A stretch of DNA of 64,000 bases, taken from IMG/VR virus record IMGVR_UViG_3300021964_000016; one strand, 5' to 3'. Source of the DNA: a virus. Below, in pieces: positions 44,527-48,079 of the stretch; position 1 is the first letter of the stretch, and each line of letters starts with the position of its first letter. Position numbers and translations under genes: made by a program. Under the pieces are notes generated by a model. The model searched no databases, had not been told where the DNA came from, and worked only from the letters and a program-made list of their open reading frames with translations.

Positions 44527-45096
44527 TCATTTAATCAAATAATTTGAAAATACAAAAGAAACAGTAAGTTCTAGTGCTGCTCCTTGTGCTTGGTTATTTA
44601 GTTCGACTTCTGTTATGGTAGTTGGATATGCTTTTACTAGTTCAACTTCATAAACCTTTTCTCCGTCAGGGACGTTTAAATTCCCTTTGTCTAACTGAAT
44701 TACAGTTACGCTTTTCGCATAGTCTGCGTGAAATCCAGCAGAATATGGGGGTGAAGGAGAAACTATACATTCCGACCATTCTTGAAAATATTTTCTGGCA
44801 CTATAGTCGTTTGTGAGATAAAATGTCAAGGAGACGTCAGAAGAAGAATACCCATTGACAACCTTTATCGGTTCCATTCCAATTTGCCTATCAAGGAGAG
44901 AGAAATTTTTGCCTGGTATTCTTGCAGCAGTACAAAGAAGGTTCATTTCTCTTGGGGGAATGGGGTCGGTGGCGATTCCCCCTCCAGGTTTAGGTGTTCT
45001 GGAAAGAGATGGCAATATAACAGAGAACCTATTCTGTGAGGCGATTCCTCTTTGGTCGTTGATCAACGAGCGGAGAGTGTCGGTTTTAAATGTCAT
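44527..45096 (-). CDS. Tail tube initiator / gp54-gp19-like protein
   Basis: G.A..NRF.V, LC..A.IPG, LTFY, YF..W, AYP..I...EL. Confidence 0.75.
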   Translation of the reverse strand: MTFKTDTLRSLINDQRGIASQNRFSVILPSLSRTPKPGGGIATDPIPPREMNLLCTAARIPGKNFSLLDRQIGMEPIKVVNGYSSSDVSLTFYLTNDYSARKYFQEWSECIVSPSPPYSAGFHADYAKSVTVIQLDKGNLNVPDGEKVYEVELVKAYPTTITEVELNNQAQGAALELTVSFVFSNYLIK

Positions 45097-45692
45097 ACTG
45101 GTTTCCTAGCAAGGATTCTGCTGTCCCTATAAACTCTACTTTGTGGTGCCTTCCTGAACAATGCTGTTGGAAGATGTACGGCAACTTCCCACTCATACGC
45201 CGGAACTAAGGCAACCTTGCCTAGTATTTGGTCGTATCTGTATCTTTTTACGCAAGGTCTGTGCGCCCTCAAAAACGTTTTACCCAAAAGATATGTGTAA
45301 TTAATTTTCAATCTAGTTCTATCAGTAAAAACAGGTTGAGTTGCTCTCGGTAATAAATTGTAATATAGTTTCTGTCTCAGGTCCACCGGAAGATAATGCA
45401 AATTCAACCCCAAAAATCCACCCTTATATTGCTCAAGCATAAACACTAGAGGGAACCTATCGTAATACGGAAGTTCTAGTCTGCCTTTGGGTTTATACCA
45501 AAACATGTACATTCTTCCGATAAAATAGTTTGCGGCGACTGGTAATCCTCGTTTTAAAGAGTTTCGTTCTATAGGTTCTTCTGCTATTTCTTTTATCTTA
45601 TCTAAAAACCAGTCTCGAGAACCTTTCGAGTTGGCATCCAACCCCTCTTCTTCGAGTTGCTGTTTAAATTTGTTGAATACGGATTCTTCCAT
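45093..45692 (-). CDS. gp2: DNA end protector gp2
   Basis: GRMYMF.Y.PK...LPYYDRFPLV, GFLGLNLHYLP..LR, PC.KRY, W..A..LPT..F. Confidence 0.93.
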   Translation of the reverse strand: MEESVFNKFKQQLEEEGLDANSKGSRDWFLDKIKEIAEEPIERNSLKRGLPVAANYFIGRMYMFWYKPKGRLELPYYDRFPLVFMLEQYKGGFLGLNLHYLPVDLRQKLYYNLLPRATQPVFTDRTRLKINYTYLLGKTFLRAHRPCVKRYRYDQILGKVALVPAYEWEVAVHLPTALFRKAPQSRVYRDSRILARKPV

Positions 45693-45697
45693 GAGTT

Positions 45698-45705
45698 TAT
45701 TTATA
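45698..45705 (-). promoter_or_regulatory. T4-type late promoter TATAAATA, 5 nt before the gp2 ATG
   Basis: Exact consensus. Confidence 0.7.
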
Positions 45706-45725
45706 CGGATTTTTTAAAAACCATG

Positions 45726-45748
45726 AAAAAGGGCACCGAAGTGCCCTT
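45726..45748 (-). terminator. Intrinsic terminator with UUCG tetraloop
   Basis: Minus strand aagggcac-ttcg-gtgccc-ttttt. Confidence 0.85.
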
Positions 45749-45753
45749 AGTTT

Positions 45754-45948
45754 TTATGCCTTGTCATTATCTTCTTTTTTCGAAGCAATATAGTACCAAT
45801 CTCCCGTAATGGGATTTTGTTTGTGAGTCTCAGAAAGTTTCTCCATGACGATCTTTACTTGCCTCGCCTTTACGACAACTTCTTCGATTTCATCTGCACT
45901 AGCAAACGTGGAAAGAAAACACAAGGCAATTACTGCCAAGTTTTTCAT
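45754..45948 (-). CDS. Small secreted protein: signal peptide + TonB-box-like motif (64 aa)
   Basis: MKNLAVIALCFLSTFASA/DEIEEVVVKAR; AAGGA SD; between hsp20 and terminator. Confidence 0.7.
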   Translation of the reverse strand: MKNLAVIALCFLSTFASADEIEEVVVKARQVKIVMEKLSETHKQNPITGDWYYIASKKEDNDKA

Positions 45949-45961
45949 TTTTGGTCCTTTA

Positions 45962-46381
45962 TTATCCGATTGGAATAACTTTTGGACGCTTCTCTTCTGG
46001 GATTTCTACTTTCAGGTCAATGACCAGTAATCCATCCACGAAGTCTGCTCCGTCAACAACGACGTGTTCTGAGAGTCTAAAGGTGCGCGTGAATTTCTTT
46101 GCAGAAATACCACGATGGAGATACTCACGATCACTTTCTCCTTCCCCAGTTTTACCTCCAGAGATTACCAAAATGCCGTCCTTGACTTCAACAGTCAGTT
46201 CGTCCTTTGAGTAACCTGCAAGAGCAAGTTCTACTGAGAAATTCTTTTCATCTTTTTTCACAACGTTGTGCGGAGGATAGAGTTTGTTATCTGCCATTTC
46301 TGACAGACGCTCGATCTCCGACCATACGTGGTCAAATCCGATGAAATGTGAACGTGGAAAAGAAAATGCTTTAGATACCAT
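45962..46381 (-). CDS. hsp20: Small heat-shock protein Hsp20 (IbpA-like)
   Basis: FIGFD, YPPHNVV, ELALAG, YLHRGIS..F.R.F.L, GA.F.DGLL.I.L..IPEEKRP..I.I. Confidence 0.95.
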   Translation of the reverse strand: MVSKAFSFPRSHFIGFDHVWSEIERLSEMADNKLYPPHNVVKKDEKNFSVELALAGYSKDELTVEVKDGILVISGGKTGEGESDREYLHRGISAKKFTRTFRLSEHVVVDGADFVDGLLVIDLKVEIPEEKRPKVIPIG

Positions 46382-46446
46382 AACGGTTCTCCTTATTAAT
46401 AAGCAAGATTGTTGTTAATGCGACCGGACTATCCGCATCGCGAGGG
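46382..46446 (-). promoter_or_regulatory. ROSE-like RNA thermometer in hsp20 5' UTR
   Basis: UCUUGCU-UAUUAAUA-AGGAGA SD-sequestering hairpin (46388-46408) plus a 5' hairpin (46420-46441). Confidence 0.75.
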
Positions 46447-46454
46447 TATTTATA
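46447..46454 (-). promoter_or_regulatory. T4-type late promoter TATAAATA for hsp20 operon
   Basis: Exact consensus immediately upstream of the ROSE leader. Confidence 0.75.
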
Positions 46455-46455
46455 C

Positions 46456-46480
46456 AAAAAAACCCCCCAAAATGGGGGGC
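46456..46480 (-). terminator. Intrinsic terminator after gp32
   Basis: Minus strand cccccc-atttt-gggggg-ttttttt. Confidence 0.8.
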
Positions 46481-46499
46481 ATAAGACCCAAATGGGGTA

Positions 46500-47414
46500 T
46501 TAGTCTGCGTTTGCTAACTTCTGGAAGTAAGAGAACGCATCATCATCTCCTGCGTCTCCTGCTTCTTCAGCAGTAGCAGCAGCACTACTAGGCACTTCAG
46601 GGGCAGCAGCAACAGGAGCAGGTGCAGGTTCAGCAACTGTGTCCATTGCAACTTCATGCTTGATAGTGCTCGGGGCGGATTGACCAAGAACTTCGTTCAA
46701 CTTGCTTTGAAGTTGTTCATAAGTCTTGTAATTCGCTGGATCAACAAACTGGTTGATATCATGCAACTGGTTTAAGACTGCTTGGAGTTGAACCTCATCG
46801 CCTTCAAAAAGAGGAGAAGGTGCTTTGAACTCTGAGCGGTCATAGTTACGATATCCTTCTACGTTACGAATCTTCAACTGGAAGTCAGCACCGTTCCACA
46901 GATCAAATGGATCGACTGGAGTCTCTCCTGGGAACTGTGGTTGCATAAGATCTTGAATTTTATCAAAGATCTTTTTACCGAACTGATACATAAAGACTTT
47001 GCCTTCATTCTCAGGGGCAGAAGGATCTGATACTACCAGAATGTTTGTAACGTAGTGAAGTCGACGCTTCTGCTTGCGAACAGTTTCGCGATCTTCTTCG
47101 TTACCCGAATTCCACAACTTGCTGTTGAGTTCACCAAGTGGGTCTTGCTGTCCAAGAGAGGTCAGCGACTTCTCAATGTACCACTTACCAGTTGGACCTT
47201 TGAACCCATGGTCCCAATAACGAACCCAAGGGACTTCGTTATCAGAAGGAAGGAATCGGATGATTGCGTAACCGTTGCCTGCCTTATCGACAGTAGGTTT
47301 CCAGATGTTCTCGTCTTGCTGTCGCTCGGTTTGTTGACCACCACCTGCTTCTTTAGCAGCATTGACGAGTTTGTTGATGTCGTATCGACGTGATTTAAGT
47401 GATTGTATATCCAT
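46500..47414 (-). CDS. gp32: Single-stranded DNA-binding protein gp32 (304 aa; start MDIQS)
   Basis: WKP.VDKAGNGYA.IRFLP, HGFKGPTGKWYIE.SLT.LG..DP, FGKKIFDKI, PFDLW.GADF.LKIR, acidic tail; AAGGA SD at 47414 start. Confidence 0.97.
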   Translation of the reverse strand: MDIQSLKSRRYDINKLVNAAKEAGGGQQTERQQDENIWKPTVDKAGNGYAIIRFLPSDNEVPWVRYWDHGFKGPTGKWYIEKSLTSLGQQDPLGELNSKLWNSGNEEDRETVRKQKRRLHYVTNILVVSDPSAPENEGKVFMYQFGKKIFDKIQDLMQPQFPGETPVDPFDLWNGADFQLKIRNVEGYRNYDRSEFKAPSPLFEGDEVQLQAVLNQLHDINQFVDPANYKTYEQLQSKLNEVLGQSAPSTIKHEVAMDTVAEPAPAPVAAAPEVPSSAAATAEEAGDAGDDDAFSYFQKLANAD

Positions 47415-47441
47415 TTGTATTTCCTTGTATGACTGAAATAT

Positions 47442-47483
47442 AACACAGTATTGATTATTGTTGAGCAACGTGTTTCGCTCAAC
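47442..47483 (-). promoter_or_regulatory. Putative gene-32 autoregulatory pseudoknot
   Basis: Stem guugagc/gcucaac with loop aacacg able to pair with ugtguu 12 nt downstream, then an A/U-rich leader. Confidence 0.5.
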
Positions 47484-47485
47484 TC

Positions 47486-47493
47486 TATTTATA
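47486..47493 (-). promoter_or_regulatory. T4-type late promoter TATAAATA upstream of gp32
   Basis: Exact consensus. Confidence 0.7.
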
Positions 47494-47506
47494 AGTATAG
47501 GCATTC

Positions 47507-48079
47507 TCAACGAGAAGTCAATACTTTTCCTTCCCGCTGTGCCCAACTAATTAGGACAACGCGACGACCTTGGAGCAACGGAGTTGCTTCATGGAAGTAA
47601 TATGCGGGAAAGATGATGGTCTCAAAAGGTTCAAGATCTACAACATAATCTTTCCCCAAAGGAGTCCATATTTTTAACTTGCCACCGACGAGGTCGTCAG
47701 ATTTTTCAATCATCGTGACGGAGGTAAACAAACGATTATGTGCGCTGCCAATCTCGTCTATGTCGTCTGTGTGACACAAAAATTGTTGCCCAACTCCCTC
47801 ATAACGTATAAACTCAAATTGCGCGAACCAAAGATCTTCAGGAAAACTAGGAGAAAGATCTAGTAAAAGTTCTCTAAGCGCAAGAGAAATGTCGGGGAAT
47901 TCTTTGTAAGTAAACGGTATGTTTTCACATTTTCTAGTTTCTGAAATAGAAGAAGATTCTAAATTCCTGTCATAAACTTGTGCGGGAGAAAGTTGCGGTT
48001 CAAGTTCTTTGAACTTTGTCAGGAGGGTCTCTTTTTGTTCTTCGTCAAAGATGAACTCTCTGATAAAATAATTATTCAA
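47507..48079 (-). CDS. 2OG-Fe(II) oxygenase (prolyl-4-hydroxylase-like)
   Basis: Y..GQ.F..HTD, R....GG.L, IIFP....HEA.P...G.R.VL.SW. Confidence 0.85.
   Translation of the reverse strand: MNNYFIREFIFDEEQKETLLTKFKELEPQLSPAQVYDRNLESSSISETRKCENIPFTYKEFPDISLALRELLLDLSPSFPEDLWFAQFEFIRYEGVGQQFLCHTDDIDEIGSAHNRLFTSVTMIEKSDDLVGGKLKIWTPLGKDYVVDLEPFETIIFPAYYFHEATPLLQGRRVVLISWAQREGKVLTSR

Follow-up and report, generated by a model that had tools for sequence, protein, structure and literature searches.

Why would a virus encode a secreted mini-protein that opens like a bacterial transporter and has no transporter behind it? The question is raised by a short ORF in the window, by which we mean the whole 64-kb stretch of viral DNA that was analysed. 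Translation of the minus strand over this ORF gives the same 64 aa that the initial annotation had quoted. The window derives from an uncultured T4-like marine myovirus, distant kin of the Kyanoviridae such as Phage C48C1, a placement based on the neighbouring genes (gp32, gp2, tail tube and baseplate) together with weak nucleotide matches. Its GC content is ~41%, and no tRNA genes were found in the 64 kb. More than half of the window's sampled words were recovered from each of at least 14 DNA runs, which come from many studies; most of these runs carry estuary or marine labels, and three are freshwater.

The initial annotation had put the mini gene at the end of a late hsp20 operon, with a good Shine-Dalgarno sequence and a UUCG terminator behind it, and the DNA agrees on each of these points (Table 1). 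Late promoter, hsp20, mini gene and terminator follow one another in what reads as a two-gene late unit, with a gap of 13 nt between the hsp20 stop and the mini gene. The stem of the UUCG terminator has 8 pairs in the terminator scan, in the plus-strand reading. Late-promoter sites number 11 in the 64-kb window versus 3.2 expected, and all 11 lie on the minus (coding) strand. Assembled contigs from three metatranscriptome runs cross the hsp20-mini junction; these contigs are strandless and cover hsp20 and the first 50–86 nt of the mini ORF, 45000-45862 being outside their coverage. They weakly support co-transcription of the two genes, carry-over of DNA or an origin from relatives being possible. 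The next gene, beyond the terminator and a further late promoter, is gp2, the DNA end protector (PHROG 429). That promoter ends 5 nt from the gp2 ATG (45692), and due to this spacing the late transcript of gp2 would be almost leaderless, without a Shine-Dalgarno sequence.

Table 1. Features of the hsp20-mini gene unit and of its predicted small product (window positions)
Feature	Position	Strand	Remarks
gp32 terminator	46462-46480		Immediately before the late promoter of the hsp20 unit
T4-type late promoter TATAAATA	46447..46454	-	Upstream of hsp20, just past the gp32 terminator
hsp20 (IbpA-like small heat-shock protein)	45962..46381	-	Gene 1 of the unit; Pfam HSP20 E 1.4e-16, PHROG 432 E 1.8e-37
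Shine-Dalgarno AAGGA	45955..45959	-	6 nt ahead of the mini-gene ATG; read from the sequence
Mini-protein ORF	45754..45948	-	64 aa; interval counts the stop codon
Sec-type signal peptide, residues 1-18	45895..45948	-	Read by eye; predicted cleavage after A-S-A
TonB-box-type motif EIEEVVVKAR, residues 20-29 (mature 2-11)	45862..45891	-	8/9 identical to IEEVVVTAR
Predicted amphipathic helix, residues 28-38	45835..45867	-	AlphaFold2 on the mature peptide, mature residues 10-20
C-terminal block H-K-Q-N-P-I-T-G-D-W-Y-Y-I, predicted beta-hairpin	45787..45825	-	Strands in both AlphaFold2 models
Intrinsic terminator GGGCAC-UUCG-GUGCCC + U-run	45729..45748	-	Begins 6 nt past the mini-gene stop
Next late promoter TATAAATA	45698-45705	-	3' of the UUCG terminator, before gp2

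The N-terminus of the precursor has, as read by eye, the features that mark Sec export and cleavage by signal peptidase I. A basic n-region (MK) is followed by a hydrophobic core of 12 residues (LAVIALCFLSTF), inside the 10-15-residue range, and by A-S-A, which places small residues at -3 and -1. The AxA site proposed earlier is thus present, and it recurs in the family: position -1 is Ala in 65/67 homologues and -3 is small in most. A periplasmic location of the mature peptide is predicted from the signal peptide. Two residues of the core, Leu9 (62/67) and Cys10 (60/67; codon 45919-45921), are also kept, an unusual degree of conservation for a signal peptide that is cleaved off.

Cleavage at this site would release a peptide of 46 residues that starts DEIEEVVVKARQ (D-E-I-E-E-V-V-V-K-A-R-Q) and continues with a short helix and a beta-hairpin (HKQNPITGDWYY), ending in a charged tail. 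According to the initial annotation, IEEVVVTAR is the TonB box of TonB-dependent transporters (TBDTs) of marine Gammaproteobacteria. We scanned the genomes of 185,579 prokaryote species, one genome per species, for DNA encoding IEEVVV[T/K/N]A[R/S] and obtained at least 120 loci. Among the matches listed, nearly all lie at the start of ORFs of 600–950 aa, 1–15 residues past a signal peptide, and those of the transporter type run on into RKREESLQDVP, with which the plug begins; the taxa represented include Halieaceae, SAR92/Porticoccaceae, SAR86, Microbulbifer, Woeseiaceae, Steroidobacteraceae and Caulobacter. Plug-domain searches point in the same direction. They returned 31 matches in a SAR92 genome, 11 in a partial SAR86 genome and 26 in a Halieaceae genome (68 in all), a density of ~1 match per 80–100 kb, and at least 22 of 30 sampled plug-gene N-termini from the three genomes read [IVLMF]-E-E-[VI]-x-V-[TS]-[AG] directly after the signal peptide. 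For SAR92, SAR86 and Halieaceae the assignment is hence borne out. In bacterial genomes IEEVVV[T/K]AR is, among the matches listed, almost exclusively a transporter N-terminus, and we regard a chance likeness of the mini-protein box to such N-termini as very unlikely.

The further claim that the mature N-terminus reproduces this box holds for eight of nine residues and for the place of the motif, but not for position 7. Most phage copies have K there, whereas nearly all listed transporter-type matches have T; among the matches listed only two have K, and both are internal stretches of other ORFs rather than N-termini exposed by a signal peptide. We take position 7, from our alignment, to be an outward-facing position of the E. 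coli boxes (DTLVVTA in BtuB, DTITVTA in FhuA) and one that varies among known boxes. In the same alignment V24 and V26 of the mini-protein presumably correspond to L8 and V10 of BtuB, where the proline mutants L8P and V10P reportedly uncouple TonB. A TonB-box proline substitution in FhuA, I9P, likewise gives an uncoupled transporter (PMC9586334). Within the mini-protein, EEVVVKA (residues 22-28) fits the TonB-ligand motif acidic - acidic/T - hydrophobic - x - V - x - A/G, and a TonB-box regular expression run over all six frames of the 64-kb window matched this box and nothing else. Signal peptide and TonB box, as expected of a TBDT, are both present. The mini-protein was nevertheless rejected as a TBDT: it has no plug (PF07715), no 22-strand barrel (PF00593) and only 64 aa.

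We next consider whether the ORF is a gene at all, or a non-functional remnant of the captured 5' end of a transporter gene. The first 29 residues do resemble the opening of a transporter precursor. Among 5.8 billion proteins searched, 47 homologues of 61–70 aa were found, and IMG/VR holds 44 loci with the mini gene; a profile search of 1.84 billion representatives gave 27 homologues, including further divergent members, and otherwise two spurious repeat proteins (Kelch, ankyrin). Altogether, estuarine and marine viral contigs contain more than 65 homologues that are intact and constant in length. By tblastn, nothing meaningful was found for the mini-protein in 50,697 GenBank phage records; a word-index search returned no longer relatives, and the profile and word searches revealed no tie to transporters beyond the short motif. 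Across 29 distinct coding sequences, the Nei-Gojobori dN/dS is 0.117 overall, synonymous sites being almost saturated. The regional values are 0.15 (signal peptide), 0.059 (residues 19-30, which hold the box) and 0.21 (middle); in the C-terminal block and the tail, saturation of synonymous sites makes the ratio impossible to compute. The box thus has the lowest value among the estimable regions. Residues behind the box are conserved as well, and unrelated to the plug, and the gene has a ribosome-binding site and a terminator of its own; the RNA-library contigs over the junction add a weak point in the same direction, with the reservation about DNA made above. The mini gene is, as judged from its substitution pattern, a real gene under strong constraint. 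A remnant, or no gene, is accordingly something to which we give almost no credence, and the selection analysis can be said to have effectively refuted it.

Conservation of the box itself is high. It is retained in 65/67 family members, with K at position 7 in 49, T in 8, V in 5 and others in the rest. The boxes of divergent members (DIEELVVTAKR, EEVKVTARP, EIIVTAKQ) stay within the sequence space of TonB boxes, and a distant homologue of 95 aa, encoded next to hsp20 in other contigs, has DIEEVKVYATK (hhalign probability 95.6%, E 1e–8). The initial annotation had named two findings that would speak against its reading, a box not shared by homologues and an ORF decaying from a TBDT gene. Neither describes this family, given the box in 65/67 members and in the distant subfamily, the dN/dS and the number of intact copies. 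Two members, P0062 and P0073, have lost the box and kept the C-terminal helix-hairpin module, so this module has a role of its own.

Behind the box there are, as had been noted, only 35 residues, with no Pfam match and hence no plug or barrel. Pfam and PHROG searches with the mini-protein gave only sub-threshold noise and no other family; Foldseek found no match in the PDB under E = 3, and the ESM Atlas no usable one. A profile search of the PDB returned a weak Kelch-repeat-like match to the hairpin and nothing else. The C-terminal block resembles a single Kelch-repeat hairpin, which accounts for the spurious Kelch matches. In the family this block follows the pattern H-K-Q-N-P-x-T-G-x-W-x-Y-V, with H42, W51, Y53, T48 and P46 near-invariant, and its conservation equals that of the box. 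The tail that follows is highly variable, despite which the final K-A (codons 45757-45762) is found in at least 49 of the 58–59 homologues that reach the end.

AlphaFold2 gave two different pictures of the N-terminal half. For the full precursor it predicted a single helix across residues 18-39 (pLDDT about 80–86). With an alignment of the mature peptide, mature residues 1-9 came out as low-confidence coil (pLDDT 54), followed by a helix at 10-20 and a hairpin at 24-26 and 33-35. Three features of the family favour a flexible arm over one long helix. Five lineages have Pro at residue 29 or 30, marking the N-terminal end of the helix; the linker between cleavage site and box varies from 2 to about 17 residues; and V24 and V26 are constrained as hydrophobic, whereas residues 25 and 27 accept K, T or V.

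We also looked at where the mini gene is found. In every locus with enough upstream DNA, hsp20 lies directly upstream of it. When loci were retrieved by hsp20 (77–100% identity), 74 had enough DNA, and 40 of these carry the mini gene while the remaining 34 carry another small envelope-directed gene in its place: a peptide of 33–36 aa with a membrane segment at its C-terminus, an anchored protein of 70 aa, or a secreted protein of 89 aa with the distant mini homologue behind it. This occupancy indicates that the mini gene is an exchangeable accessory cassette and not a fixed part of the phage. Such exchange is typical of genes for phage-host or phage-phage conflict or for host takeover. The hsp20-mini unit, for its part, has moved as a block. 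In the phage of the window (positions 45093-47546) and in its two closest relatives (L017 and L034) the order is gp32 - [hsp20 - mini] - gp2, while most other relatives with the mini gene have regA ... [hsp20 - mini] ... DNA polymerase. The phages C48C1, Melnitz and S-CAM3 have hsp20 in the regA/DNA polymerase setting and lack the mini gene, and none of the small genes after their hsp20 is related to the mini-protein.

Some details of this slot are worth recording. In sister phages the 33–36-aa peptide (MKPRVWRRLNTYG... plus the C-terminal membrane segment) lies after hsp20 at L192:1938-2039, L207:1958-2062 and L212:1935-2057 and in about 25 further loci (L192-L258), often with a 4-nt overlap with the hsp20 stop. 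C48C1 encodes a 34-aa analogue, and the peptide may be the ancestral partner of hsp20. In another subgroup, here L263, hsp20 is followed by the 89-aa secreted protein (1943-2212) and then by the 95-aa distant homologue (2209-2496), which keeps SAN-DIEEVKVYATK and W-H-Y; ten such loci were seen (L270-L279).

What, then, could the peptide do? To our knowledge, the only function of a TonB-box motif is beta-strand pairing with the C-terminal domain of TonB. In the reading we favour, the mini-protein may quite possibly be a periplasmic TonB-box competitor, a ligand that vies with all transporters for TonB. This is suggested by the near-exclusive transporter motif, the conservation of the box, its strand-like pattern, the probable flexibility of the arm, the precedents discussed below and the accessory status of the gene. 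The mini gene would be transcribed late together with hsp20, and its product exported by Sec and cleaved after ASA. The resulting 46-residue periplasmic peptide would present a flexible N-terminal arm, EIEEVVVKAR, as a mimic of the transporter box in its type and in its position relative to the cleavage site; the identity of the motif with transporter starts of the SAR92, SAR86 and Halieaceae type is observed. By analogy with the boxes of transporters and colicins, the arm could add itself as a beta-strand to the C-terminal domain of the TonB of the host and so compete with the transporters; the helix-hairpin module probably contributes affinity or a second contact. In a more speculative step, TonB-energised uptake as a whole would come to a halt late in infection. 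What the phage might gain is equally speculative: exclusion of TonB-dependent phages and bacteriocins, sparing of progeny from loss on TonB-energised receptors, a saving of proton-motive force, or the rewired uptake named in the initial annotation. Going further, and with more reserve, we may tentatively see here the first natural virus-encoded competitive inhibitor of TonB, a secreted free box tuned to the type that all transporters of a marine gammaproteobacterial host would share, swapped between related phages as a cassette with other small envelope genes and switching off all TonB-powered transport across the outer membrane late in infection.

The proposal of a periplasmic, TonB-occupying peptide had already been made in the initial annotation. 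Architecture, late operon position and conservation of the box are in line with it. A single complex prediction without controls, of the C-terminal domain of SAR92 TonB (residues 105-202, a stand-in for the TonB of the host) with the mature peptide (19-64), scored 0.00 and weighs in neither direction. Competition for TonB has to contend with profile and word searches that revealed no tie to transporters beyond the short motif, with K in place of the T of transporters at position 7, with the helix of the full-length model, and with the two box-less members that keep the C-terminal module. The last two of these are what would be expected if the product were a small periplasmic or envelope protein unrelated to TonB, for instance one that times lysis, remodels the envelope or inhibits a periplasmic enzyme. 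EEVVV would in that case be conserved as a strand with a structural task, or within an amphipathic or coiled-coil helix, and would resemble a TonB box through ancestry or by chance. Indeed, the hydrophobic residues at 21, 24, 28, 31, 35 and 38 fit a heptad along the predicted helix at 18-39; unrelated small membrane or secreted genes fill the slot in sister phages, and late expression fits lysis-related functions. However, the 8/9 match to a near-exclusive transporter motif, at an equal distance from the cleavage site, is hard to reconcile with such a role, and a heptad leaves the near-invariant V26 unexplained. The prolines at 29/30 in five lineages would break a long helix, and in the mature-only model the box is unstructured. 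On balance, a function apart from TonB strikes us as rather unlikely.

The box might also be a working one without being a decoy. The peptide could be a bacteriocin-like or signalling molecule that leaves the cell when it lyses, attaches to a transporter of neighbouring cells and then either is pulled in or acts as a plug; alternatively, the box could tether the helix-hairpin to the TonB complex at transporter sites. In favour of such uses, the box opens an arm that is probably disordered, much as it does in colicin M, and the separate conserved C-terminal module could be an effector or a receptor-binding part. Large proteins in which TonB-box-like motifs occur several times are encoded on other marine viral contigs, a sign that phages may have further ways of exploiting TonB. 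Against this, the peptide is very small for receptor binding plus translocation, and no toxic or enzymatic domain was detected by Pfam, PHROG, Foldseek or PDB profile searches. We also know of no TonB-dependent bacteriocin that has a Sec signal peptide. Import or tethering is therefore, in our estimate, improbable. More improbable still is a lipoprotein or an uncleaved membrane-anchored protein that jams a transporter in the manner of T5 Llp or Cor, with Cys10 lipidated or the N-terminal stretch as the anchor, a role to which we assign a very small probability. The retention of Leu9 and Cys10 would find an explanation in this way, small transmembrane peptides do fill the slot in sister phages, and Llp and Cor are indeed small phage lipoproteins that jam a transporter. 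A lipobox requires G, A or S at -1. The pattern [LVI][ASTVI][GAS]C is, however, absent from the mini-protein: its sole Cys, C10, is preceded by A-L, and the family sequence [VIL]-A-L-C puts Leu at -1. Only ~6 hydrophobic residues come before this Cys, which is missing in 7/67 homologues, and FLSTFASA would come after it. The conserved AxA site at residues 16-18 and the absence of a PHROG match to the Llp/Cor families likewise speak against a lipid or membrane anchor.

Competition for TonB can be set against several known systems; in its proposed action the peptide comes closest to the boxes borrowed by colicins and pyocins, to the small phage proteins that jam FhuA and to man-made TonB-box inhibitors. 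With the N-termini of TBDTs the mini-protein shares eight of the nine residues of IEEVVVTAR, a box 2 residues past the Sec cleavage site (1–15 in transporters), an arm that is probably flexible and the same alternating conservation of hydrophobic positions. It differs from them in that it lacks plug and barrel, has 35 unrelated residues after the box, mostly has K for T, and is encoded by a lytic phage. Colicins, pyocins and pesticin offer a precedent for molecular mimicry, as in them, too, a TonB box is grafted on the disordered extreme N-terminus of a protein that is not a transporter; in colicin M the box ETLTV occupies residues 2-6 of a disordered N-terminus (PMC11658791). Unlike these proteins, which are large toxins with killing domains that enter via a transporter, the mini-protein has 46 residues in its mature form, is made inside the cell for export by Sec and has no recognisable toxic domain. 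The superinfection-exclusion proteins T5 Llp and Cor of T1/phi80-type phages are comparable in their size of about 60 aa and their origin from phages, presumably also in a periplasmic location, and in that TonB-dependent transport is the (proposed) target; the action of Llp requires a working TonB box in FhuA (PMC9586334). Llp and Cor, however, are lipoproteins of the outer membrane, each binding the plug of one specific transporter, while the mini-protein has no lipobox and no similarity to them, and its proposed target is the shared TonB. Among synthetic TonB-box peptides, consensus pentapeptides were reportedly used as TonB inhibitors in the early 1990s. Such peptides delivered to the periplasm as siderophore conjugates were found to inhibit growth (PMC9841981). 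The proposed mechanism is the same, a free periplasmic box vying with the transporters, but unlike these man-made peptides the mini-protein would be natural, genetically encoded and maintained by evolution. Our literature search found no description of a natural phage-encoded free TonB box.

Bacteria of the SAR92, SAR86 and Halieaceae type take up polysaccharides, iron and vitamins mainly through TBDTs, and a phage peptide that titrates TonB would, if real, cut all of these routes at once. It would amount to a new way in which a virus takes over or seals the host envelope, and to a novel form of superinfection exclusion aimed at the shared motor and not at one receptor. It would also provide a natural, evolution-optimised inhibitor of TonB, an antibiotic target that is being pursued with synthetic box peptides (PMC9841981). 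In addition, the box type may narrow the search for the host of this abundant estuarine phage group.

TonB-box-like motifs were also seen in other viral ORFs. A 285-aa ORF on a viral contig (L187:1032-1889, plus strand) has a signal peptide followed by SLEEVVVTARKY and about 240 residues; it is too short for a plug and a 22-strand barrel. Two longer IMG/VR ORFs, of 562 and 870 aa (L181:2844-4532 and L184:640-3252, both on the minus strand), carry several such motifs: LPTVTVTGSRL, GLEEVVVTARRP and GLEEVTITGKRTP in one of them, and ALEEVVVTARRA and DLEEVTVTGRKP, along with Pro-rich repeats, in the other. Conceivably both are virion or ejection proteins with a colicin-like use of TonB.
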